A DNA stretch of 27,388 nt from an uncultured Candidatus Saccharibacteria bacterium (GTDB lineage: Bacteria > Patescibacteriota > Minisyncoccia > Phycocordibacterales > CAIZIN01), in contig CAZTQI010000001.1 in NCBI GenBank assembly GCA_964615805.1, positions 1-27,388 of the forward strand, given 5' to 3'. Of the stretch, positions 1,892-23,571 are shown piece after piece. Position 1 is the first letter of the stretch. Each line of letters begins with the position of its first letter. Both the position numbers and the translations under genes were made by a program. A model generated the notes under the pieces. That model made no database searches, was not told the DNA's origin, and was given only the letters and a program-made list of their open reading frames with translations.

Positions 1892-3007
1892 TTAATCGAG
1901 AAAATACTGTGGAGTAACCACTTGGGCTTTTGCTGTGGGATATAATTTCAAAAACTTATTAAATACAACATTTTCTTTTGTCCACTTACACTCAAAAGCT
2001 TGAATGTCTCTATTTTTCTGAACAATAAAATCAATTTCAATTTTCTCTGTTGTCCTCCAGAAATATATGCGCGGTGGAAAGGTTTCAATCTCACCAGCTT
2101 TTAGAAGCTCCAAAAAAAACATGTTTTCAAAAACCATACCCTTATCCTCTCTTCCAGAAAGATTATCTACATTGTCAGCTATAACATTTCTTATACCGAG
2201 ATCAATAAAAAAAACTTTAAATGCTTTTCTCAGCTCATTTCTATGATTATTTGAAAACGACCTTACTATTTTTATGATATATGATTGCTCCAAAAGTTTT
2301 AAATATTTTTCAACTGTTGTACGACTTGTTTTTAAACTATTAGCTAGTTCATTCACCGAAACGAGTTGCCCAATTTGAAGTGCTAACATTTTAATCATGT
2401 CCTCAAACAATTGCGGACTTCTGATTGATTCAAATATGTATATATCCTTGTATAAATAATTAGTGGTAATATTTTTCAAAAGATTCTCTCTTGTCATCCT
2501 ATCTTCTTCACCTACAATAGCTGGGTACATTCCAACTCTCATATGTTCCAGAATATCTACAGTATCTATTTTTTTTGTTTTTTTAATTTCAGAAATTGAG
2601 AGAGGATAAAGTATAAACTCAAAAGACCTACCAGTGAGAGGCTCGTTTATTTTGTTAGCTAAATCAAAAGATGATGAACCGGTAGCAATAATCTGCACTT
2701 CCGGATATTTATCAATAAAAATCTTTATGATAGTCCCTATATTTTGAATTGTTTGAGCTTCATCAAAAACTACTATTTTTTTATTTAATACAAGTTCTTT
2801 CAGCTGATCTGGGTCACCTACAATAAAATGCTTTCTTACGCTAATTTCCTCGCAATTAAAGTATGCTCCGAGCTCTCCAAAATCCTTGATAATTTTTTTA
2901 GCCAAGGTAGTCTTTCCGGCTTGTCTTGGTCCAAATATTAAAATTGCCCTCTTTTTGAAAAGAAGCTCCTTGATTCTAGGCTCTATATTACGATCAAATA
3001 TAATCAT
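1892..3007 (-). CDS. AAA_14/DUF4143-type ATP-binding protein
   Basis: Walker A GPRQAGKT, Walker B FDEAQ, ATGSS, and C-terminal YFWRT...EIDFIV...AFECKW (PD-(D/E)xK-like) typical of this family. Confidence 0.88.
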   Translation of the reverse strand: MIIFDRNIEPRIKELLFKKRAILIFGPRQAGKTTLAKKIIKDFGELGAYFNCEEISVRKHFIVGDPDQLKELVLNKKIVVFDEAQTIQNIGTIIKIFIDKYPEVQIIATGSSSFDLANKINEPLTGRSFEFILYPLSISEIKKTKKIDTVDILEHMRVGMYPAIVGEEDRMTRENLLKNITTNYLYKDIYIFESIRSPQLFEDMIKMLALQIGQLVSVNELANSLKTSRTTVEKYLKLLEQSYIIKIVRSFSNNHRNELRKAFKVFFIDLGIRNVIADNVDNLSGREDKGMVFENMFFLELLKAGEIETFPPRIYFWRTTEKIEIDFIVQKNRDIQAFECKWTKENVVFNKFLKLYPTAKAQVVTPQYFLD

Positions 3008-3296: not shown

Positions 3297-3860
3297 TTAT
3301 AAAATATCTAAATTTTTCATTTTCTTTAATGCTCTTGCAACATTTGAATCCGTACCAGACATGACATCTTCAAAGCTAACCCACTTATAATCAGATACTT
3401 CATTCTCATCTAAAATAACATCACTTGAATCAACTTTATAAACAAACATAAAATCGTGATGACTATGTTCCGATTCGTTTTTTTTGATATTTTCAGGAAT
3501 TATATGTGTATCAACCAATATTGGACACTTATTATCCAAGCACCACTTATGCAATTCAATATTGGATATTCCTGTTTCCTCCAAAACTTCTCTACGGGCA
3601 GAATCCTCTAGATATATATCACCCACCTCAACGTGTCCACCAGGCTGTAAATACTTTTGTAATTTATTATGAAAAATAACCAGTATTTCATTGTTAGAGT
3701 TAATTATTAAAGCACTCGCTGTAACGTGACCATTGAAATTCGATCTAGATAAAAGATCTTGTTCTTCAGAAATCTGATTTTTTAACTTTTCAAACAAATG
3801 ATTCTCTTCATTAAAAATTTCAAGATAACTATTTAAATTTTTTATTATATCGTTCAGCAT
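3297..3860 (-). CDS. NUDIX hydrolase
   Basis: Nudix box QPGGHVEVGDIYLEDSARREVLEETG, plus HVTASA and HxHHDF. Start moved from 3896 to the ATG at 3860, 2 nt after the upstream stop at 3863. Confidence 0.9.
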   Translation of the reverse strand: MLNDIIKNLNSYLEIFNEENHLFEKLKNQISEEQDLLSRSNFNGHVTASALIINSNNEILVIFHNKLQKYLQPGGHVEVGDIYLEDSARREVLEETGISNIELHKWCLDNKCPILVDTHIIPENIKKNESEHSHHDFMFVYKVDSSDVILDENEVSDYKWVSFEDVMSGTDSNVARALKKMKNLDIL

Positions 3861-3862
3861 AT

Positions 3863-4999
3863 TTATATATTTATTAATAAAAAGTACTTCAACCAAAGAT
3901 CTGCTATTCTAATCCTATCTAATTCGGAAGTTTTCTGTACACTACTGTCGAGCGTATTTTCATTCATGTACACAATCGAATCTATTATCTCCTTCTGCAC
4001 CAACAAGATAAAATCATCTACCACTGCACCATGCAAAAAATTGACCGCATTTCCATCATTAATAACATAAACACTATGAGTATTTTTCTCATACCTAGTA
4101 ATATAATCATTTATAATAAGCTTGGAATAATTATCTTTTAGATATTTAAGGTCTAATTCATCGTCTGAGGATGTTACCGAAGCAATAAATACATTATTTT
4201 TTAACAGTTTGTATTCATCATCCTTGAGTGATAAATTTCCACTTGAACAGAAAATAACATCTGAAATTTCTAACAGTATATTTTTAGTTACAATTTTATT
4301 TCCTCTTGAATATGCATGAATCAGGGTTATTGGATTAATATCATAAACTGAAACATCACAGCCTTTATCTCTAAGTGATGAAAGTATACCATTACCAATT
4401 TTACCAAAACCAATTATTCCAACCTTTTTATTGTTTAATAGAATACCTAACTCTCTAAATAAAGCATCAACAGAGAAAACTACAGCTTGACCAACAAGGT
4501 GATCTTCGTTTTCTTTTAGAGGACTCCTGGCTACAGAAAGCACTGGATGATTTAATCCTTTATTTAGGTATTTTTGATGTCCGTTTTCAGTATCCTCAAT
4601 CACCCCTAAAAACCTTTCACCGAGAACTTCTTTTATTTTGCTAGAGATATTTGAAAAATATCCTCCTATATCAACAATAACTAAATTATTATCTTTCGGA
4701 ATGTTATTAATTATTGGTAAAATAACACTGATATCTTTTAGCTCTTCACGAGTAATATTTAATATTTTATTTTTTGGATATAATTCTAAAAAAATTTTAT
4801 TTATTGATTTTTTCTTTGGTATGATACATTCTATTGAAAAATATTTGTTGAGAATGTTTATATACGGAACTCCAGTATCTATAACATGACTGACTACAAT
4901 CAAACTAATTTTTTTAGTGTTTTTAGCTTCAGAAATAAAATTATCATCAAAAAACTTTTCCCTTGTTTTTATTTTTTCTTTAGTAAGATAATTTATCAT
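3863..4999 (-). CDS. Divergent S-adenosylhomocysteine-hydrolase-like NAD-binding protein
   Basis: Rossmann motif GIIGFGKIG, VYDINP; SAHH-like segments IVDIGG, IEDTENG, SVARSPLKENED, SGN and GNAVNF. Confidence 0.75.
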   Translation of the reverse strand: MINYLTKEKIKTREKFFDDNFISEAKNTKKISLIVVSHVIDTGVPYINILNKYFSIECIIPKKKSINKIFLELYPKNKILNITREELKDISVILPIINNIPKDNNLVIVDIGGYFSNISSKIKEVLGERFLGVIEDTENGHQKYLNKGLNHPVLSVARSPLKENEDHLVGQAVVFSVDALFRELGILLNNKKVGIIGFGKIGNGILSSLRDKGCDVSVYDINPITLIHAYSRGNKIVTKNILLEISDVIFCSSGNLSLKDDEYKLLKNNVFIASVTSSDDELDLKYLKDNYSKLIINDYITRYEKNTHSVYVINDGNAVNFLHGAVVDDFILLVQKEIIDSIVYMNENTLDSSVQKTSELDRIRIADLWLKYFLLINI

Positions 5000-15536: not shown

Positions 15537-16328
15537 ATGAATAGATCAACAACCAATAAAAATATAAACCTTATAATTTATTCTAAAGGTGAGGAATTTC
15601 TGAGTGGGGCTGAAAAAATTCAACAAGATACAATCAAATTTGGCAAACAATGTGAAATATATGAGATTGATGATTTTATTGAAAATATTAATGAAATAAT
15701 TAATAAAAATATAATACGTGTATATTTTCTTACCGGTGACTGCAGAATACAACAACTCGTTAATATTATCACAAAACAAAATCAATTAGTCATAAATAGT
15801 ACTTTTTTATCTTGTGAAATATTATCTTCAAAATATGATTCACTTATGAAGGTAAGTTTGTGTGGCGTACATATACCTGACAATTTACTTATTAATGACA
15901 ATAGTTTAAGTGAATTAAATAGATTTCCAATACCTTTATTTATTAAATCTAAAAGTCCAAGAGGAATAGTAACTAGAATTGAAAGTATTGATGAACTGAT
16001 AAGCAAATTAGAGATAGTAACAAAAAATGAAAGAAGCGAGATTTACCTCGAAAGAGATATCCTTACCGATGGATTTACTGAAATTAAACTTTATTATGTT
16101 AATGATATGGTTTATGTGTCCGATAGCGAAAATCTCATAATTATTCCCGAATGGTTAAAAGATATCTTACACAGAATATCAAGGACTCTAGAAATTGAAG
16201 TTTTTTCGACTGATTTAACTGTTAATTGGTCAAGCAGACAATATTATTGCTTTGATATAAATTATGCATCTTCATTTTTTATGTGTGCACCAGCAAGAAT
16301 TGAGTTTATAAATAAAATACTCATATAA
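15537..16328 (+). CDS. Divergent ATP-grasp (RimK-like) protein
   Basis: SKYDSLMKV...GVHIPDNL, FPIPLFIKS, YLERDI, EIKLYYV and STDL...YCFDINYASSF follow the RimK-type pattern (K.....L...G..P, P.V.KP, QE.I, D.R..V, G.D....EVN). Confidence 0.65.
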   Translation: MNRSTTNKNINLIIYSKGEEFLSGAEKIQQDTIKFGKQCEIYEIDDFIENINEIINKNIIRVYFLTGDCRIQQLVNIITKQNQLVINSTFLSCEILSSKYDSLMKVSLCGVHIPDNLLINDNSLSELNRFPIPLFIKSKSPRGIVTRIESIDELISKLEIVTKNERSEIYLERDILTDGFTEIKLYYVNDMVYVSDSENLIIIPEWLKDILHRISRTLEIEVFSTDLTVNWSSRQYYCFDINYASSFFMCAPARIEFINKILI

Positions 16329-16329
16329 T

Positions 16330-17010
16330 ATGAATTGGGCCGAAATGTATTTAAAAAAAATTAATAGGGCTGGTGGATTTGACGAATATCTAAGAAAAAA
16401 AGACAAGAGAGCAGCTGGCGCCCTTATTAAACGAATGTCTGTCAAGCTTCAAAAAGGTTCAAAAATTTTGGAAATAGGAACTGGAACAGGAGCAATTGGT
16501 ATATTGCTTTCAAAAAATGACTTCAATGTCGTTGCCATCGATAACAATGTTGAAATGTTTAATATTGCAAGTAAGTTCATAAACACACACAGTAAGAACT
16601 GTAGAGTTCTCCTGATGGATGCAAAAGACACACTAAGGGAATTTGGTAAGGATTCATTTGATTGCGTAATTTTACATGGAATATTACAACACTACTCAAA
16701 TTTAGAAATTATTAGACTTATCGATACCCAGCTTTCAGTAGCACCAATTGTGATCTTCACTGTACCAACAAAACATATGTCTAAAAAATATCGGTCTGAG
16801 GGATTTGGAGGAGAGAGATATATCTCCACAAGAGAACGGAAAGATATTATAAAAAGAAAATATGTAATTAGTGATGTCTATGGATTTGGTTTTAAAGAAA
16901 CAAATTTTATTCCAAACTTCCTAGAAAAATTTTTGAATAATAATGTTATATCAAAATTTTTTGCACCATTTTGTGCAGTTAATGAGTTCTGGATTAAAAG
17001 GTTAAAATAG
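16330..17010 (+). CDS. Class I SAM-dependent methyltransferase
   Basis: ILEIGTGTG, VAIDNN, LMDA and FDCVILHGILQHY. ATG lies 1 nt after the ATP-grasp stop. Confidence 0.9.
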   Translation: MNWAEMYLKKINRAGGFDEYLRKKDKRAAGALIKRMSVKLQKGSKILEIGTGTGAIGILLSKNDFNVVAIDNNVEMFNIASKFINTHSKNCRVLLMDAKDTLREFGKDSFDCVILHGILQHYSNLEIIRLIDTQLSVAPIVIFTVPTKHMSKKYRSEGFGGERYISTRERKDIIKRKYVISDVYGFGFKETNFIPNFLEKFLNNNVISKFFAPFCAVNEFWIKRLK

Positions 17011-17416
17011 CTTCTTTTATGATAGTTTTAATTTTTTTAAAATAATCCTTTAAATTTTTATAACTTAAAAGATCGATAACATCATCAATTGGTGTCCAAT
17101 TAATACCATCAGCAGGATGCTCTAATTTCAATAATGAGTCATCATTAGACTGTACAAGAAATATTTTTGTAGCTACAATATCCCCACCACTATTAACATA
17201 ATCTAAGTCAGGTAATTCCTTTAAAACACGAACATCTAGCCCAGTTTCTTCTTTAACCTCTCGTACCATTGCCTGAATTTGGTTTTCTCCTATTTCAACA
17301 TGTCCTTTCGGAAAAGACCAGTCTTTTTGTTTTCCACGATAAAGTAACGCTATCCTATTTTTATCTAAAGCACTCAAAATAATCGCGCCAGATTTTTGTA
17401 TTGTTTTACAGTTCAT
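16994..17416 (-). CDS. NUDIX hydrolase (Ap4A-hydrolase-like)
   Basis: WSFPKGHVEIGENQIQAMVREVKEETG. Confidence 0.9.
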   Translation of the reverse strand: MNCKTIQKSGAIILSALDKNRIALLYRGKQKDWSFPKGHVEIGENQIQAMVREVKEETGLDVRVLKELPDLDYVNSGGDIVATKIFLVQSNDDSLLKLEHPADGINWTPIDDVIDLLSYKNLKDYFKKIKTIIKEAILTF

Positions 17417-17422
17417 AATAAT

Positions 17423-17452
17423 AAAAAAGCCTCTCTATAATAACAGAGAGAC
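17423..17452 (-). terminator. Terminator after the kinase gene
   Basis: Minus strand GTCTCTCT-GTTATTAT-AGAGAGGC-TTTTTT. Confidence 0.65.
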
Positions 17453-17462
17453 TGTGAAGAAG

Positions 17463-18011
17463 TCAAAGCAGTGAAGGGTCTAGCTTACCTACTCGTACTA
17501 GGTGCCCAAACAATGCTTCGGCTTCCAAAGATCGCAATTCATGTGATGCAATTCCGCAAAAGGCCCATTCAACGTGAGAAAGGAGACATTCATCCCCTGC
17601 CTCACTGTGCCAATGGCGCTCCCTTCTTATATCAAGACTCAGATCCTCTGGAGTACTTCGTTCAAGTCTTAATTCTTTTGGAATATAGACACAAACCAGT
17701 AAACTGTTTGGATCAACCTCGGTAATCGCACGCCACTCGTCTGGAGTATGAACTGAATCCATAAGGATTACTGCATTTGAGCCACGACTATATCCCATTC
17801 GTTTTATCAGATGGTGCATTACCTTGTAACCCCCACTTGTACGATAAAGGTTTCGATACCATCTAATCCACGCGGATTCATCATCGCCCATTCCAGACCA
17901 ATCTTTCAACAAATCTCTCTTTATGACCCATCTCCATCCATACTTTAGTTCCAAATATTTACAGAGATCAGACTTTCCAGAGCTGTGAAAACCAGTAAAC
18001 CCAATGATCAT
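17463..18011 (-). CDS. P-loop NMP/dephospho-CoA-kinase-like protein
   Basis: MIIGFTGFHSSGKSD, MDSVHTPDE and ELRLER lid. Start moved from 18065 to 18011 because of SD GGAGG. Confidence 0.72.
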   Translation of the reverse strand: MIIGFTGFHSSGKSDLCKYLELKYGWRWVIKRDLLKDWSGMGDDESAWIRWYRNLYRTSGGYKVMHHLIKRMGYSRGSNAVILMDSVHTPDEWRAITEVDPNSLLVCVYIPKELRLERSTPEDLSLDIRRERHWHSEAGDECLLSHVEWAFCGIASHELRSLEAEALFGHLVRVGKLDPSLL

Positions 18012-18027
18012 ATTTTTTCCTCCAAGT

Positions 18028-19131
18028 TTAGGCAGGATCTCCACATCCCGACATGATGTTAGCAATACAATTTGTTAAGGGAATTTGGAGCCCTTTCCAA
18101 ATTGATGACAGTGTCTCAGCGCCCAAATTACCAACGCAAGGAACATTTAACGGCTCAAGAAAACCACACGTTGAAACACGACCGTCTGGATGAATTGCAA
18201 GGCCTCTTCGCCCAGCCTTGCATTTACACCAAGCAAAAGGAAGCCTAACTCTGGGAGTAATAACATCCTCTTTTAGGTAGTGACCACTCACTCCACTATT
18301 AGAGACAGAAAGAAATGTGTCGAGTTCCTTCCTCAAAAATACATAATCTTGTGCAGATAACATTTCCTTAACACTAGCTCTGCCAGATGGAATGAGACGT
18401 CTGATCATTATTTTTATTCCTCTGTCATGAAAATACTGAACAGTAGATGGAATATCTAATAAGTTACTTTTCATAGCAACAATATTCACCCTGACCGGAA
18501 TATCAAAACAATTCAACGACTCAATTCCACGAAGAACTCTGTTGAATGACCCTTTACCACGAATATCATCATGTTGATTTTCAAGACCGTCAACACTAAC
18601 AATGGCAACATTAAGGTCAGCTTCAGAGAGTTTTCTTGCAACAGTATCATCAACCAATACTCCATTAGTACCAATAGAGGCCCGTAATCCACACTTCCGA
18701 ATTTTAGAAATGTAACCAAAAATATCTTTGTTGAGCAATGGCTCACCACCAGTAAATCTAACTTCTTGAACCCCTACAGTACATAAATCATCAAGTAAAC
18801 CATCTATTTGCTCGTGAGTGAGTTCCAATAATAGCGATTTACCTGAATTATTCAAACAGTGAGTGCAGCGTAGATTACAAGCGCGCGTGAGTTCGAAAAA
18901 AATGATATCTGGCGCACTAAAATTATGCGACAACAACTCCGGTTCACGAATAATTACATCTGTGCAATTTGTGCGTAGCTCGATACAGAGTTCTTGTGTA
19001 ACTCTACCGCTACTCTTGATAGATTGAAATTCATCGTTGTTGATATAAATTCTCCTTCCAGAGACGGCATTTCCCAGCGTTCCGCCAAATGATTCTTTTC
19101 TCAAAAGTGATGATTTTTTATTAGTATTCAT
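18028..19131 (-). CDS. Radical SAM protein with short SPASM/twitch region and N-terminal RRE-like segment
   Basis: CNLRCTHC, FTGGEP, VSVDG...HDDIRG and CKAG...IHPDGRVSTC. Start moved from 19230 to the ATG at 19131 (SD GAAAGGGT; the promoter lies inside the longer ORF). Confidence 0.9.
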   Translation of the reverse strand: MNTNKKSSLLRKESFGGTLGNAVSGRRIYINNDEFQSIKSSGRVTQELCIELRTNCTDVIIREPELLSHNFSAPDIIFFELTRACNLRCTHCLNNSGKSLLLELTHEQIDGLLDDLCTVGVQEVRFTGGEPLLNKDIFGYISKIRKCGLRASIGTNGVLVDDTVARKLSEADLNVAIVSVDGLENQHDDIRGKGSFNRVLRGIESLNCFDIPVRVNIVAMKSNLLDIPSTVQYFHDRGIKIMIRRLIPSGRASVKEMLSAQDYVFLRKELDTFLSVSNSGVSGHYLKEDVITPRVRLPFAWCKCKAGRRGLAIHPDGRVSTCGFLEPLNVPCVGNLGAETLSSIWKGLQIPLTNCIANIMSGCGDPA

Positions 19132-19201
19132 TTTTACCCTTTCTTTTATTGAGTTCCTTTCAAATAACACATGCTTTAGAATTCCTAAAGCATCCTGGGT
19201 A

Positions 19202-19230
19202 AATCTAACAAACCACACAGTAAAAGTCAA
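19202..19230 (-). promoter_or_regulatory. Promoter of the second radical SAM operon
   Basis: Minus strand TTGACT-17 nt-TAGATT with a TGT extension; same tandem TTTGAC layout as 8444-8464. Confidence 0.6.
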
Positions 19231-19241
19231 ATATAGTCAAA

Positions 19242-19586
19242 TTATCCCCTCTTTACAACCGGGCTAAACCACTGTTCTTGAAAATTCACAACCTTCAAAA
19301 TATCCTCATCCGATATATTTTCAAAATCTTTCGAAACAACAATAAGTTTGTGGTCTCCCGTATCATCTGAGCGTTCTATGTATGCAACACATTTACCTGT
19401 AAAAGTTTCAAGTGGTTCATTAGGGCCAATCACATAAGCATCCAACTCCTCCCCATCACCCTGTATTGTATTTTCAATAAAACCGTAGTTTATTGGATAC
19501 GTCCAATCATACTTGTCATGTTTTGTTCCCAAAGGTCGATCCATTTTTACCTCCACTTCTTTTCCTATGTATTCGTTCGTTTTCAT
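19242..19586 (-). CDS. Small family I inorganic pyrophosphatase-like protein
   Basis: DRPLG, YPINYGFI, GDGEELDAYV and DHKLIV. Confidence 0.85.
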   Translation of the reverse strand: MKTNEYIGKEVEVKMDRPLGTKHDKYDWTYPINYGFIENTIQGDGEELDAYVIGPNEPLETFTGKCVAYIERSDDTGDHKLIVVSKDFENISDEDILKVVNFQEQWFSPVVKRG

Positions 19587-19655
19587 TTAAATTATTTATT
19601 TAAAAATTAATTCAATTACAACCTTATAATACCTAATGATATCTACATAATTATT

Positions 19656-20072
19656 CTACAAATAATTAACAGTTTCAAGTGGATAAAGAATTACTTCAGA
19701 ATTTTTTACTTTTTCAATGTCTACCCACTCTGCAAACGAATCGTCTTTATCTAGTATTTTAACAACTTCTTGATTATAAATCGTTTCTTCTAGTAAATCA
19801 CATTCATATAGAAATGTTATTTCGTGATATTTCTCTCCGTTGTATTCAAAGACATTTTCTATTGGACAAATAAATTTTTCATTAACTGTTGTTGAATCCA
19901 ATTCTTCCCTGATTTCTCTTTTTAGAGTGCCTAAGGATAGCTCACCAAATTCAACCCCGCCTCCAATTAATCTATAAAATTTGTCACCTTTTACTTTGTC
20001 CTCTGCCTTTATAGCAAGCACCTTTCCATTCTTTTTAATAATAGCTAGTGAATTTGGTCTTATTTTATCCAT
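19656..20072 (-). CDS. NUDIX hydrolase
   Basis: LIGGGVEFGELSLGTLKREIREEL, plus ENVF and HEITF. Confidence 0.9.
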   Translation of the reverse strand: MDKIRPNSLAIIKKNGKVLAIKAEDKVKGDKFYRLIGGGVEFGELSLGTLKREIREELDSTTVNEKFICPIENVFEYNGEKYHEITFLYECDLLEETIYNQEVVKILDKDDSFAEWVDIEKVKNSEVILYPLETVNYL

Positions 20073-20145
20073 ATATTTTATTGGTTTTTATATTTTTGAT
20101 AATCTCAATCCTAAATTAACTTAACATAATTTAATTATTTAACAC

Positions 20146-20940
20146 TTATTGTCCAAATGTCATAAAATTTGAACTTTCATAATTCTTAACAGCCCTCTTA
20201 AACAAAAACAAGGAAATCACAAACCAGAAAACAGACAACGCACCAACCAGCAATAATTTCTGGTATGACATATTTGTAATGGCCTCTACTGGCAAGGTAC
20301 CTATTACAAGCGATGGAAGTATAAAGGTGAAGATAAATCTTGTCATACCCTGAAAAGCCCCGCCGTGAAATAATGAAGGCGTAAAAAATAGTTCAAAAAT
20401 ACTTCTAGTCACAGAATCCGGATCCTGAAAATAAAAACTTATAGACTGCACCGAAACAACAACACCAGCAAATGCAATCGAAGAGAAAAATATTAATAAC
20501 AGTGTCATACAAACCTGCTGTATATTTGCACTGATAGTTATTAAATAAATAATTACACAAACAATACCATAGAACAAATCCCCAATTGCAGCAGAACTGA
20601 ATGATGATGTTGCTACACGCCCAAGTAAATTCTTTGGAGAAACTAAGAATTGATCGAAAATTCCTGAACTAACCAGCCTTGGCATTTCTCTTAATCCAGC
20701 ACCGAATGAAAAGACAAAACCATAAACAAGCGCAACAAAACCTTGCAACCCAACTACATCAGCCGATGTCCAACCCCCAATACTTCCAACTGTCTGAACT
20801 AGGGATACCCAAATAATTATAAAGACTATATTATTCAGCATCATTCCAAGTATATTAATTAAAAAACTCGCCCTCAGCTCCGCACTGCTTGAGAGATTTT
20901 TTCTAATTGAATATATAATAAAATTTACTTCGTTTTTCAT
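20146..20940 (-). CDS. ABC-2 type exporter permease (ABC2_membrane_6/DUF990-like)
   Basis: Six hydrophobic segments, G.FDQFL..P.N, FIFTFILP and C-terminal AVKNYES. Confidence 0.85.
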   Translation of the reverse strand: MKNEVNFIIYSIRKNLSSSAELRASFLINILGMMLNNIVFIIIWVSLVQTVGSIGGWTSADVVGLQGFVALVYGFVFSFGAGLREMPRLVSSGIFDQFLVSPKNLLGRVATSSFSSAAIGDLFYGIVCVIIYLITISANIQQVCMTLLLIFFSSIAFAGVVVSVQSISFYFQDPDSVTRSIFELFFTPSLFHGGAFQGMTRFIFTFILPSLVIGTLPVEAITNMSYQKLLLVGALSVFWFVISLFLFKRAVKNYESSNFMTFGQ

Positions 20941-20943
20941 AAA

Positions 20944-21744
20944 TTAGCCACCATTTACAGAAACCTTCTTATGTGCCCTATTAAACATAATATACACAAA
21001 TGTCCCCAAAATAATAACCCAAAGAACTTGAATACTGAACATCTTAACATAATTTATTGTCCATGATTCATATACAGTATGAGTAATAAATTGTGAGGCT
21101 CCAAAAGGACTCCATACCGCTATTTGATACATAGCCTTAGGAAATAATGCCACTGGCAAATATGACCCACCTAGTATCATCACCGCCTTATCAACAATCC
21201 AATATACGGGTTTTATATCCTCAATCCAAAATGATAACAATCCAACAATAGAATATATCAATAAGGACAAGACTACAGACAATATGAACACACAGGTAAG
21301 TGAAATTAAGAAAAAGGATGTAGTCATTGCTATTGGTACACCAACAAAAAACCACATTGCAATCGTTCCTAATAAAGTTATTACAAAAAATGGATAGATG
21401 CCTGCTCCAAATTGCCACCAAATGCGATACACTAAATAATTCATCGGCTTTGATAACAAAATTTCTACTGTACCTGATTTAATATCCTGCATAATTAGTG
21501 GGGCCAGATCTCTCAATCTTAAGGTAAGAAATGAGAAATATAAAAACATACTCCAGGCTGCAGCCTGAAAATCTACTCCACTTATTGAACCACCTTTGAG
21601 TCTAAAGATATATGAATAAAGAACAAGCAGTACGCCACATCTCGCAACTATGCCAAAAGTATCCAAAATTAATCTCCCAGGATATTGGATACGATCCCTA
21701 ATCATCATTTTTATTAGGCTTTTAGCTAGTCTTAGTTGTTTCAT
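20944..21744 (-). CDS. ABC-2 type exporter permease
   Basis: DIKSGTVEILLSKPMNY, LGGSYLPVALFP and WSPF; hydrophobic. Confidence 0.85.
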   Translation of the reverse strand: MKQLRLAKSLIKMMIRDRIQYPGRLILDTFGIVARCGVLLVLYSYIFRLKGGSISGVDFQAAAWSMFLYFSFLTLRLRDLAPLIMQDIKSGTVEILLSKPMNYLVYRIWWQFGAGIYPFFVITLLGTIAMWFFVGVPIAMTTSFFLISLTCVFILSVVLSLLIYSIVGLLSFWIEDIKPVYWIVDKAVMILGGSYLPVALFPKAMYQIAVWSPFGASQFITHTVYESWTINYVKMFSIQVLWVIILGTFVYIMFNRAHKKVSVNGG

Positions 21745-22711
21745 ACATTTCTCTTATTACGGCTTCAAGCTCCATGTTATACACATCAATATCCGAAACA
21801 GCAAAGTGTGGTAGGACTTTTTGTAAGGCATCTGAAACGGTATGCATTCTTAAATCGACAGTTAAAACAACCTTATCTTCAGTTTTTTCTTTATAAGAAA
21901 TGCCTTCGGGTAAAATTGGGTAATCAGCTATTGATTTTTCTAAGTATAAATCTATGTATTTTTCGTATACAAAAGATTTACCTAGTTCACTTGTAGGCAT
22001 ATCTGCAACAATTTGACCATTATTAATTATTACAGTTCTATCACAAAGAGACTCAATATCACCAACATCATGAGAAGTTAAAAAAATTGTTGTTTTTTCT
22101 GTCTCGTTTATTTTAATGAGCAACTCGCGTAAAGTTTTTTTTGCTACAACATCAAGCCCAATGGTAGGTTCATCAAGAAAAATAATTTTTGGTCTATGTA
22201 TTAATGATGTGGCTATTTCAGCTCGCATTCTTTGTCCGAGTGATAATTTTCGAACAGGCTGATCTATGAAACTTCCTAGGTCAAATTGCTTAATCAGTTC
22301 GGCTGATCGATTTTTAATCTCCTTTTTTGTTAAATCATACATAACACCAAAAAACTCAAAAGAATCTGTTATTGGGAGATTTGGGAATAATTGACTACGT
22401 TGTCCAAAGACAGTACCTATACTATAAGCCAATTTTTTTCTATCCTTAGCTGGATTTAATCCCAATACTGAAATTGAGCCACTGCTAGGATAAAGAATAC
22501 CGGTCAACATTTTAATTGTTGTTGATTTACCAGCACCATTTGGTCCAATGAATGCAATTCTTTCGCCTTCTTTAACCGTCAAAGACACATTATTAACAGC
22601 ACATATATTCTTATTTTTTGGGGAGAAAAAATTACCAATAATATTCTTTGTCTTTATTTTAAAAGAGAAATTTTTAGATAAATTTTCTACATTAATGATA
22701 TTTTTCTTCAT
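21722..22711 (-). CDS. ABC exporter ATP-binding subunit (DrrA-like)
   Basis: GPNGAGKST, LSLGQ, FLDEPT and TSHD. Confidence 0.95.
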   Translation of the reverse strand: MKKNIINVENLSKNFSFKIKTKNIIGNFFSPKNKNICAVNNVSLTVKEGERIAFIGPNGAGKSTTIKMLTGILYPSSGSISVLGLNPAKDRKKLAYSIGTVFGQRSQLFPNLPITDSFEFFGVMYDLTKKEIKNRSAELIKQFDLGSFIDQPVRKLSLGQRMRAEIATSLIHRPKIIFLDEPTIGLDVVAKKTLRELLIKINETEKTTIFLTSHDVGDIESLCDRTVIINNGQIVADMPTSELGKSFVYEKYIDLYLEKSIADYPILPEGISYKEKTEDKVVLTVDLRMHTVSDALQKVLPHFAVSDIDVYNMELEAVIREMYETTKTS

Positions 22712-23571
22712 GATTTATTTTTCTTTGCCTTGATTGATATTTTCTTATTTTTCCTTTGTTCCAAGAAATTACCTTTTGTTGTAATTTTCTTTCTAGTCTT
22801 GGTTTCGATTTCTTTCCTTGCATTTCCAGCGACCTCCCCACCTTCTTTTGAATCTTTTTTGAGTGAAGGAAAACCTTTCGAATTTCTTGTCTGTGATAGT
22901 TCTGTGGTTGTGGCTTCACCAAGCATAGTGAGAATCAATTCAAGTTCATTCATATGATCACGAGGGTTGTCTGGATTTGAAAGATTTTTATATTTCTTGA
23001 TCTGCTTCGCATTCATATCAAAAGTACCTTTATATATTTCATTAGTTAAAATTGCAAATTCAATTCCTTCTTTTGCTCCACGATCTTTCCACTCATCTGT
23101 GAGGGTATTTCGAACATTAATCCCTCGCATACGTTTTGCAATCCAGTCATCATTGTAACCCTTCTGCTCATATATTTTCTTTGCACGGATTATTGCTCGC
23201 TCCGGGTCTTGAATTTCCTCAATTCTCTCCTGACCTACTTTTGCAAGCCATTGTTTGAAGGGTTCGGCTTTTGGAGATGGAATGGATTGAATAATACGGA
23301 AAATACCTTCGAGATTAGACATTATTTCTGAACGCTTTTTACCATCTTTTGAGATAACTTCAAGTGGGGTACAAATTGTACCCCACTTGACAGACAGCTC
23401 ATTGTCTCGTGCCCTCATCTTTTTAATATATTGCTTAATATCATTTGAATTAGTAAGAGCTAGTACAATGTCAGATATAGAAAAATACCACTGTTCATTG
23501 TGCCACGTGCGACGAACTTCTTTTTCTTCGAAAATCGCGACTCGCTTTGTTATGTCCATTTGCTTTTTCAT
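22708..23571 (-). CDS. BRO-N family (phage antirepressor-like) DNA-binding protein
   Basis: VRRTW...WYFSISDIV, EGIFRIIQSIPSPKAEPFKQWLAKVGQERIEE and RDHMNELEL. Confidence 0.85.
   Translation of the reverse strand: MKKQMDITKRVAIFEEKEVRRTWHNEQWYFSISDIVLALTNSNDIKQYIKKMRARDNELSVKWGTICTPLEVISKDGKKRSEIMSNLEGIFRIIQSIPSPKAEPFKQWLAKVGQERIEEIQDPERAIIRAKKIYEQKGYNDDWIAKRMRGINVRNTLTDEWKDRGAKEGIEFAILTNEIYKGTFDMNAKQIKKYKNLSNPDNPRDHMNELELILTMLGEATTTELSQTRNSKGFPSLKKDSKEGGEVAGNARKEIETKTRKKITTKGNFLEQRKNKKISIKAKKNKS

Follow-up and report, generated by a model that had tools for sequence, protein, structure and literature searches.

What does a radical S-adenosylmethionine (SAM) enzyme act upon when the gene beside it encodes a kinase-like protein and not a precursor peptide? 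This question is raised by a stretch of 27,388 nucleotides from an uncultured Candidatus Saccharibacteria bacterium (contig CAZTQI010000001.1 of assembly GCA_964615805.1; hereafter the window, in whose positions all coordinates are given), in which a radical SAM gene is followed by the gene of a P-loop protein of the nucleoside monophosphate (NMP) kinase fold. The initial annotation of this DNA proposed either a nucleotide-modifying pair, possibly antiviral, or a peptide maturase acting in trans on two peptides of 37 amino acids (aa) encoded elsewhere in the window. The pair is the first transcription unit of a horizontally scattered five-gene cassette, of which full-text literature searches found no account and which is thus regarded as undescribed. 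The cassette has, in our judgement, about an even chance of building or remodelling a phosphorylated small molecule of nucleotide or sugar-nucleotide type, and not a ribosomal peptide.

A conserved cassette of five genes

The radical SAM-kinase unit lies entirely on the minus strand, and the order given in the initial annotation, namely promoter, radical SAM gene, 16-nt gap, P-loop kinase gene and terminator, was confirmed throughout. As also claimed there, no credible small open reading frame (ORF) occurs inside the unit, and none is conserved within it. The implied picture of a self-contained pair did not hold, since the Nudix, methyltransferase and ATP-grasp genes (15537-17416) belong to the same conserved block: past the terminator the cassette continues with a Nudix gene and with convergent methyltransferase and ATP-grasp genes. 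Its elements in the window are the following:

19202 to 19230, minus strand: sigma-70-type promoter-like site of the radical SAM gene (TTGACT, 17 nt, TAGATT, with TG)
18028 to 19131, minus strand: radical SAM enzyme gene, 367 aa (protein P0001), with ATG at 19131, TAA at 18030-18028 and GAAAGG upstream
18027 to 18012, minus strand: gap of 16 nt between the radical SAM and kinase genes, containing GGAGG
17463 to 18011, minus strand: gene of the P-loop protein of NMP-kinase fold, 182 aa (P0002), with ATG at 18011 and TGA at 17465-17463
17428 to 17466, minus strand: intrinsic terminator of the radical SAM-kinase unit, an 11-bp stem at 17453-17428 plus a T-run (dG -15 kcal/mol, z -4.4)
16994 to 17416, minus strand: Nudix hydrolase gene, 140 aa, with an intact Nudix box
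16330 to 17010, plus strand: class I SAM-dependent methyltransferase gene, 226 aa, convergent with the Nudix gene, the 3' ends overlapping by 17 nt
15537 to 16328, plus strand: ATP-grasp enzyme gene, 263 aa, 1 nt upstream of the methyltransferase gene

Longer ORFs with TTG starts, at 19230 and 18065 in a mechanical ORF list, were dropped because the homologue alignments start at the ATGs. A TTGAC-type promoter also lies 60-100 nt 5' of the radical SAM start in homologous loci of the candidate phyla radiation (CPR).

The neighbourhood scan used one genome per species and returned 80 loci, on all the ORFs of which profiles of the window proteins were run. There were 48 distinct ortholog loci, and the 43 with at least 2.5 kb downstream were used for presence counts. 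The kinase gene follows the radical SAM gene in 35 of these 43 loci, directly adjacent in 30, a Nudix hydrolase resembling Dcp2 and Ap4A hydrolase is likewise present in 35, and an ATP-grasp enzyme resembling RimK and ITPK in 39. Six radical SAM homologues with 47-65% identity stand in the same five-gene block (radical SAM enzyme, a protein of ~178 aa, a Nudix protein of ~138 aa, then a convergent methyltransferase of ~225 aa and a protein of ~250 aa) with unrelated flanks. The genes also co-vary: pairwise identities of the radical SAM enzyme correlate with those of the kinase (r=0.80, 33 loci) and of the ATP-grasp enzyme (r=0.81), label shuffles reaching at most 0.19. Three distant representatives of the kinase again have these partners beside them, in one case with the genes in a new order (radical SAM, ATP-grasp, methyltransferase, kinase, Nudix), and gene fusions join several partners, with radical SAM and ATP-grasp fused in one locus (L054, 643 aa), Nudix and ATP-grasp in another (L033, 382 aa) and methyltransferase and radical SAM in two (P0117 and L057, about 560 aa). 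The radical SAM-kinase linkage is far beyond chance. The neighbourhood analysis that the initial annotation had called for thus upheld its pairing of a radical SAM enzyme with an NMP-kinase-like gene in place of a precursor: the pair is real, it is kept across many genomes, and the homologues have no adjacent precursor of their own.

When ORFs of 15-70 aa from 47 cassettes and their surroundings were clustered, no conserved precursor emerged; the clusters obtained were a helical protein resembling a zeta-toxin partner and a ~69-aa coiled-coil ORF, each limited to a Firmicutes subgroup and neither found in CPR-type loci. The 5' untranslated regions (UTRs) of the cassette loci contain tiny ORFs, none of them conserved. 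For the two 37-aa GGGG/acidic peptides of the window, tblastn gave noise-level matches only, and no counterpart, within ~6 kb of ~47 other loci. A composition scan found the GGGG-acidic tail only in these two peptides and in one ORF of an Uhrbacteria locus, the four other loci that it flagged containing unrelated ORFs. The Uhrbacteria ORF (L020:2375-2551, minus strand; 58 aa, ending in ...GGTTGGGGYGEDANIDYD) is divergent from the cassette radical SAM gene and lies ~230 bp upstream of it. The proposal of action in trans on the 37-aa peptides therefore fared badly, as no similar peptides travel with the cassette at other loci.

Three versions of the cassette were distinguished:

CPR type: radical SAM-kinase, Nudix, convergent methyltransferase-ATP-grasp
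Gut Clostridia type: radical SAM-kinase-(69 aa)-Nudix-ATP-grasp, then a short-chain dehydrogenase/reductase (SDR) resembling NDP-sugar 4,6-dehydratase and UXS (8 loci)
Third type: with a PezT-like zeta kinase (14 loci) and a partner of ~70 aa (11 loci) inserted

The PezT/zeta-like kinase (~296 aa) with its conserved helical partner of ~70 aa occurs in gut Firmicutes versions (L027, L031, L033, L036, L038, L042-L044, L046, L049-L052 and L054) and is absent from the window and from CPR-type cassettes. It is present in every Firmicutes-type locus that has enough flank and lacks the dedicated kinase, seven loci in all, usually together with an RNase Z-like metallo-beta-lactamase-fold protein, which counting all versions occurs in 8 loci, and a RIO/Bud32-like kinase, which occurs in 7. 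One locus, from a Moraniibacteriota genome (L025), is an exception, with neither the dedicated nor the PezT-like kinase within about 5.9 kb. The methyltransferase family of the window is found at the corresponding place in 10 CPR-type loci, and the Tenericutes and Bacilli versions have a different methyltransferase, fused to or adjoining the radical SAM enzyme. Judged from their families, the recurring partners belong to phosphate, nucleotide and sugar-nucleotide chemistry.

The cassette enzymes

The radical SAM enzyme carries CxxxCxxC at C85, C89 and C92 and a GGE motif, and it matches the Pfam models Radical_SAM (3e-25), Fer4_12 and SPASM (8e-6, over residues 304-347). No NCBIfam equivalog came near its cut-off, and the NCBIfam models of BlsE and MoaA scored far below theirs. 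Six C-terminal Cys are present, and only C304, C322 and C355 are invariant in 18 orthologues; the CxxCxxxxxCxxxC block of the full seven-Cys SPASM motif is absent from the family. Because only these three Cys are invariant, the C-terminal domain is better described as twitch-like than as a full SPASM domain. The barrel strands contain a series of invariant Arg (R125, R191, R214, R244, R245, R251, R294 and R309), and the R-V-N motif of beta5 recurs in BlsE (RVN) and MoaA (KVN) and is missing from SkfB.

A conserved domain with the motif LLRxExFGGT...G.R.Y makes up the N-terminal 70 residues. In the AlphaFold2 model of the enzyme (pLDDT 88.7) this domain, at about residues 8-62, has three strands and two short helices at high pLDDT (b8-13, b16-21, b27-30, a32-41, a46-51); the third helix of a canonical RRE, the recognition element of ribosomally synthesized and post-translationally modified peptide (RiPP) enzymes, is absent. 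The modelled domain resembles a truncated RRE. With Pfam and NCBIfam searched at E<=10, the PqqD, RRE and MftB models did not match ten N-terminal domains of the family, an MftB match appearing only in two distant relatives, at E=0.13, and comparison with the RRE of the window's first radical SAM enzyme gave motif-level similarity (E=0.096).

In Foldseek searches the enzyme ranked closest to SkfB (6efn; TM 0.74/0.71 over 382 columns) and SuiB (5v1t; 0.73), followed by BlsE, CteB, anSME, MoaA and viperins, the alignments to SkfB and SuiB spanning its full length with the N-terminal domain included. Profile searches of the PDB gave SkfB (2.9e-32), BlsE (3.6e-27) and MoaA (2.5e-19).

The window contains another radical SAM enzyme, the first in order (8350-7055), which has the full SPASM Cys set, a C-terminal domain of LRSEEFG type and a 41-aa Cys-rich ORF directly downstream. 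The initial annotation was correct that the C-terminal Cys set of the second enzyme, with its three conserved residues, is the shorter of the two. Since the first enzyme has both a full SPASM domain and its own downstream ORF, the two radical SAM modules of the window represent different kinds of system.

A sister family of radical SAM enzymes, with about 30% identity to the cassette family, carries the same N-terminal motif (L060, L063, L064, L065 and L070). Its clusters contain a second small radical SAM enzyme, a B12-type radical SAM enzyme and a Nudix protein, with a GH94-like phosphorylase added in Clostridia, and they include those of the cultured Anaeromicropila populeti and Ruminiclostridium papyrosolvens, which are possible experimental handles.

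The kinase gave as a single sequence only a weak Pfam match (AAA_18, 6e-4), and its family matches only the generic models AAA_18, AAA_33 and AAA_17. Its Walker A motif is GFHSSGKS in the window and G-x-H-x-x-G-K-S across 19 orthologues, in which K31, W51, D85, H88, E92, W93, R118, D127, R130, H135 and C142 are invariant; the Walker A positions (G7/H9/G12/K13), the Walker-B-like Asp (D85) and the Arg residues of the LID region (R118 and R130) of an NMP kinase are all invariant. The AlphaFold2 model (pLDDT 94) shows this fold, with the adenylate kinase-related SSO1041 as the best PDB match (3lw7, TM 0.74/0.78), followed by AK5, shikimate kinase, dephospho-CoA kinase and UMP/CMP kinase. SSO1041, in its AMP-bound form, is also the best PDB match of the family profile (1.3e-9). 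No NCBIfam model matched the protein and so none placed it in a characterised subfamily such as Adk, Cmk or CoaE, and the family is rare, with only about 51 clusters at E<=1e-30 in a profile search of 1.84 billion representative proteins.

The Nudix protein matches PF00293 above cut-off (2.9e-15) with G38, E44, R52, E53, E56 and E57 invariant, and its closest solved relatives are Ap4A hydrolase (3i7u), Ndx1, Dcp2 and MutT1. The 263-aa protein of the window matched no Pfam or NCBIfam model; among members of its family, 9 of 20 match Ins134_P3_kin and 8 of 20 RimK, the Atlas structure match to RimK/LysX clusters has a TM of about 0.8, and K99, K137, E172, D226, D240 and N242 are invariant, which identifies it by sequence and fold as an ATP-grasp enzyme of RimK/LysX- and ITPK1-like type.

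Expression signals and genomic setting

Two further elements of the window lie in the control regions of the cassette:

17428 to 17466, minus strand: Nudix promoter nested in the radical SAM-kinase terminator, with a TTGACT -35 box immediately 5' of the stem; the extended -10, TGTTATTAT, is in stem and loop
19171 to 19193, minus strand: perfect 10-bp palindrome or hairpin of the type ATGCTTTAGG AAT CCTAAAGCAT, within the predicted 5' UTR, after the -10 box and ahead of the ribosome-binding site

In CPR-type loci the gap between the kinase and Nudix genes always contains a strong hairpin with a U-run, and in 11 of 16 such loci (the window, L005, L007, L008, L009, L013, L017, L019, L020, L021 and L001) a full promoter is nested in this hairpin, with TTGACx just 5' of the stem, 14-16 nt, and then TGnTAnnnT in the loop; shuffled sequences gave on average 0.05 such loci and at most 2. 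The stems vary in sequence between lineages. Transcripts started at the nested promoter do not include the 5' arm of the stem and so would run on past this terminator, and the radical SAM-kinase and Nudix genes are therefore separate transcription units in these loci. Firmicutes versions of the cassette have translationally coupled genes. Nesting a promoter inside a terminator hairpin may be a way in which tiny genomes in general save space.

The 10-bp palindrome could be an operator or a 5' stem-loop; it shows no obvious conservation in other cassette loci, and an 8-codon ORF overlapping it (MCYLKGTQ) is not conserved there either. Rfam had no family match anywhere in the window. One metatranscriptome gave two contigs of 151 nt that map within the radical SAM gene; this is weak evidence of expression, as DNA carry-over is possible.

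The window belongs to a metagenome-assembled genome (MAG) of CPR type, 688 kb in size and 75% complete. A sample of 201 genomes of the same order yielded the kinase once, in the window genome itself, and the cassette is therefore a sporadic accessory. CPR hosts of the orthologs include Saccharibacteria, Zambryski-, Buchanan-, Gottesman-, Kaiser-, Uhr- and Moraniibacteria, and further orthologs occur in gut MAGs of Clostridia, Bacilli and Tenericutes and in Parachlamydiales. Large serine recombinases flank 8 of 47 loci. The cassette is horizontally scattered; no orthologue of the radical SAM enzyme or the kinase was found in IMG/VR or PLSDB. GC content at third codon positions was not relied on as a sign of recent transfer, the values being 0.30 for the radical SAM gene, 0.36 for the kinase gene and 0.18-0.30 for their neighbours, with PPDK similar.

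In more than 20 metagenome runs from lakes and freshwater, spanning many studies, positions 12000-23000 of the window recur in near-identical form. Co-occurring relatives have contigs that part from this sequence at points bracketing the five genes (about 15365-15398 and about 19314) and also inside the block; no clean presence/absence or excision joint was seen in metagenome contigs, in which depth was low and loose ends were ambiguous. Two other genes of the window match PADLOC models of candidate defence genes, an AAA_14/DUF4143 ATPase (1892-3007, minus strand; PDC-S01, 3e-121) and a BRO-N protein (22708-23571, minus strand; PDC-S13, 3e-108), and the Nudix genes match PDC-S07 weakly. The kinase, the ATP-grasp enzyme and the accessory genes had no PADLOC match. 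The PDC-S01 and PDC-S13 genes fit a variable island, and in gene content the window resembles an island of defence or variable genes.

Four separate Nudix genes occur in these 27 kb (3297-3896, 10020-10580, 16994-17416 and 19656-20072) of a genome of about 0.7-0.9 Mb, and only that at 16994-17416 belongs to the conserved cassette. Directly upstream of the radical SAM promoter, a truncated protein of 114 aa resembling inorganic pyrophosphatase (PF00719, 1.7e-11) is encoded at 19242-19586 on the minus strand; this short gene and the Nudix gene upstream of it (19242-20072) are not kept with the cassette, and the pyrophosphatase-like gene stands beside no other cassette locus. Further upstream (20146-22711, minus strand) lie an ABC ATPase and two ABC2_membrane_6 permeases. 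The same trio is found near the cassette in L005 (1-1895) and beside the distant cluster of three radical SAM genes of R. papyrosolvens (L063:9140-11753), which may reflect an exporter association or a coincidence.

Possible products and known systems

Of the two alternatives in the initial annotation, the nucleotide-modifying one fits the gene context better than peptide maturation, the radical SAM-kinase pair no longer standing as a unit of its own. A product of nucleotide or sugar-nucleotide type is suggested by the NMP-kinase fold, by a Nudix enzyme of Ap4A-hydrolase/Dcp2 type, by the PezT-like kinase that most loci without the dedicated one carry and by the NDP-sugar SDR of some loci, as well as by the Arg-rich barrel of the radical SAM enzyme, its three-Cys auxiliary site and its closeness to BlsE and MoaA in profile searches. 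Gene structure, folds, linkage, fusions and sporadic distribution are the computed part of the following scheme, and all of its chemistry is inferred. The NMP-kinase-fold protein would phosphorylate a nucleotide or a hydroxyl of a sugar or ribose, with the PezT-like kinase as its substitute or companion in some lineages. The twitch-type radical SAM enzyme would then commit the sugar or ribose to the pathway by a radical step, possibly a dehydration, a decarboxylation or the formation of a C-C bond, as do BlsE, MoaA and viperin. The RimK/ITPK-like ATP-grasp enzyme might attach an amino acid or a phosphate, and the methyltransferase might decorate the product. The Ap4A-hydrolase/Dcp2-like Nudix protein would finally cut a pyrophosphate link, either releasing the product or preventing self-poisoning.

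Several observations weigh against such a product. The architecture of the radical SAM enzyme, with its three-strand/two-helix N-terminal domain, core and twitch, fits the peptide maturases SkfB and SuiB best, and its LRxExFGG motif recurs in the C-terminal RRE of the first radical SAM enzyme of the window, a bona fide RiPP enzyme. ATP-grasp enzymes of RimK/LysX type often act on protein C-termini. The NDP-sugar and PezT accessory genes are confined to the versions from gut Firmicutes, where mobile DNA may have carried them along.

The same structural features argue for a modified peptide or protein encoded away from the cassette, such as a host C-terminal tail or the product of a distant small gene, a possibility that deserves tentative consideration although we doubt it. 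The RRE-like domain would here recruit the substrate, the radical SAM enzyme cross-link or oxidise it, the ATP-grasp enzyme add residues, the kinase phosphorylate it and the methyltransferase cap it. Besides the b-b-b-a-a topology at high pLDDT and the full-length alignments to peptide maturases, with SkfB, SuiB and CteB among the top structural matches, the similarity to the first enzyme's RRE, the MftB matches in distant relatives and the RimK/LysX-like structure of the ATP-grasp enzyme all agree with this scheme. It has to contend with the lack of any conserved small ORF in or beside the 47 loci, with an N-terminal domain that has no third RRE helix and no PqqD or RRE model match, and with four partners (Nudix, NMP-kinase fold, PezT-like kinase and NDP-sugar SDR) that have no established role in peptide maturation; for a cassette found so sporadically, a housekeeping protein target would be odd. 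Action of the radical SAM enzyme on the two 37-aa peptides (14112-14647), with the kinase as a tailoring enzyme, is very improbable. Their proximity (about 0.9 kb from the ATP-grasp gene) and the Uhrbacteria ORF speak for it, and against these stand the noise-level searches at other loci and the movement of the cassette as a block between differing flanks. Taken together, the evidence counts against both a classical RiPP cassette and action on these peptides.

Within the favoured class of nucleotide-type products, a viperin-like antiviral module would be a specific sub-case, in which the radical SAM enzyme would make a chain-terminating or toxic nucleotide analogue from a kinase-supplied nucleoside triphosphate and the Nudix protein would protect the host. 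Sporadic distribution, serine recombinases at 8 of 47 loci, a PezT-like toxin kinase with its small partner at 14, the two candidate defence genes of the window, the separate promoter of the Nudix gene, the match of the radical SAM core to viperin profiles and the presence of viperins among the structural matches are all consistent with it. This module is nevertheless unlikely, as the enzyme is not a viperin, having a twitch and an N-terminal domain, as the kinase, the ATP-grasp enzyme and the accessory genes have no PADLOC match and as no orthologue was found in IMG/VR or PLSDB. The PADLOC models of prokaryotic viperins (pVips) match only at positions 4-195 of 262 and 2-169 of 257 (E about 1e-19), that is, over the generic radical SAM core, and the single cluster of a pVip is at odds with the SPASM match at 304-347 and the three conserved C-terminal Cys. 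Membership of the pVip family was rejected, as the initial annotation had already concluded. A conflict or defence role of some kind is plausible, given the recombinase- and toxin-associated distribution, and a new mobile conflict system can be envisaged, which we consider somewhat unlikely in this particular form: the radical SAM enzyme, kinase and ATP-grasp enzyme would make a toxic or signalling nucleotide derivative acting against phages or competitors, the Nudix protein would serve as antidote or off-switch, and the PezT-like kinase would be interchangeable with the dedicated one in some lineages. That two unrelated housekeeping genes merely share an operon, as the weak single-sequence Pfam match of the kinase, and nothing else, might have suggested, is ruled out by the neighbourhood analysis, which found cross-phylum linkage, co-variation, fusions and a rare kinase confined to the cassette context.

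Linkage and fusions thus bind a distinct radical SAM family to a rare kinase family, to a Nudix hydrolase and to an ATP-grasp enzyme, in tiny-genome Patescibacteria as well as in reduced gut Firmicutes. Radical SAM enzymes acting on nucleotides or sugar nucleotides, such as viperin, MoaA and BlsE, have yielded antiviral molecules, cofactors and antibiotics. If the product were a new modified nucleotide, it would represent new chemistry and possibly a new mechanism of defence or antagonism in uncultured organisms; if the substrate were a protein, an RRE-type maturase system with no local precursor would also be unusual. The co-directional operons of the Firmicutes versions make the substrate question open to heterologous expression.

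Among known systems, SkfB and SuiB share with the cassette enzyme the order of a small N-terminal domain, a radical SAM core and a C-terminal auxiliary-cluster domain, and they are its best structural matches, with SkfB also the best profile match. The cassette enzyme differs from them in its shorter N-terminal domain, its three conserved auxiliary Cys and the absence of an adjacent precursor at about 47 loci, and where they have a peptidase and a transporter as partners, it has a kinase, a Nudix hydrolase and an ATP-grasp enzyme. Of the features of an RRE-dependent radical SAM RiPP maturase, it has the CxxxCxxC core and the C-terminal auxiliary Fe-S domain, and a precursor gene beside the maturase was found at none of 47 ortholog loci. 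BlsE, a cytosylglucuronate decarboxylase, and MoaA, a GTP 3',8-cyclase, are twitch-type radical SAM enzymes working on nucleosides or nucleotides. They share with the cassette enzyme the beta4-beta6 motifs and a single short auxiliary-cluster domain, and differ from it in lacking an N-terminal RRE-like domain, with identities of 18-23%. In MoaA the auxiliary cluster is ligated by three Cys and GTP is bound at the free iron.

The pVips, like eukaryotic viperin with CMPK2, combine a radical SAM enzyme with an NMP-kinase-fold gene and have a sporadic, island-like distribution, as the cassette does; the cassette differs in a radical SAM enzyme that has a twitch and no viperin C-terminal extension, in its obligatory Nudix and ATP-grasp enzymes and in a kinase of a distinct, rare family. 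The PezT/zeta toxins, which are UDP-GlcNAc 3'-kinases with epsilon/PezA-type partners, have their likeness in the PezT-like kinase and ~70-aa partner of the 14 Firmicutes-type cassettes, where the kinase may be either a pathway enzyme or an addiction module. The cassette ATP-grasp enzyme shares its fold and its catalytic K/E/D-x-N motifs with RimK/LysX, with the alpha-L-glutamate ligases CofF and MptN and with the inositol-phosphate kinases ITPK1, and at about 250 aa it is shorter than RimK. A precedent for radical SAM enzymes in a mobile defence cassette, compared here by description and not by homology, is the antiphage system HXS, whose substrate is a defined repeat protein, which includes neither a kinase nor a Nudix or ATP-grasp enzyme, and in which the radical SAM enzymes HxsB and HxsC mature the effector HxsA (PMC13128918).

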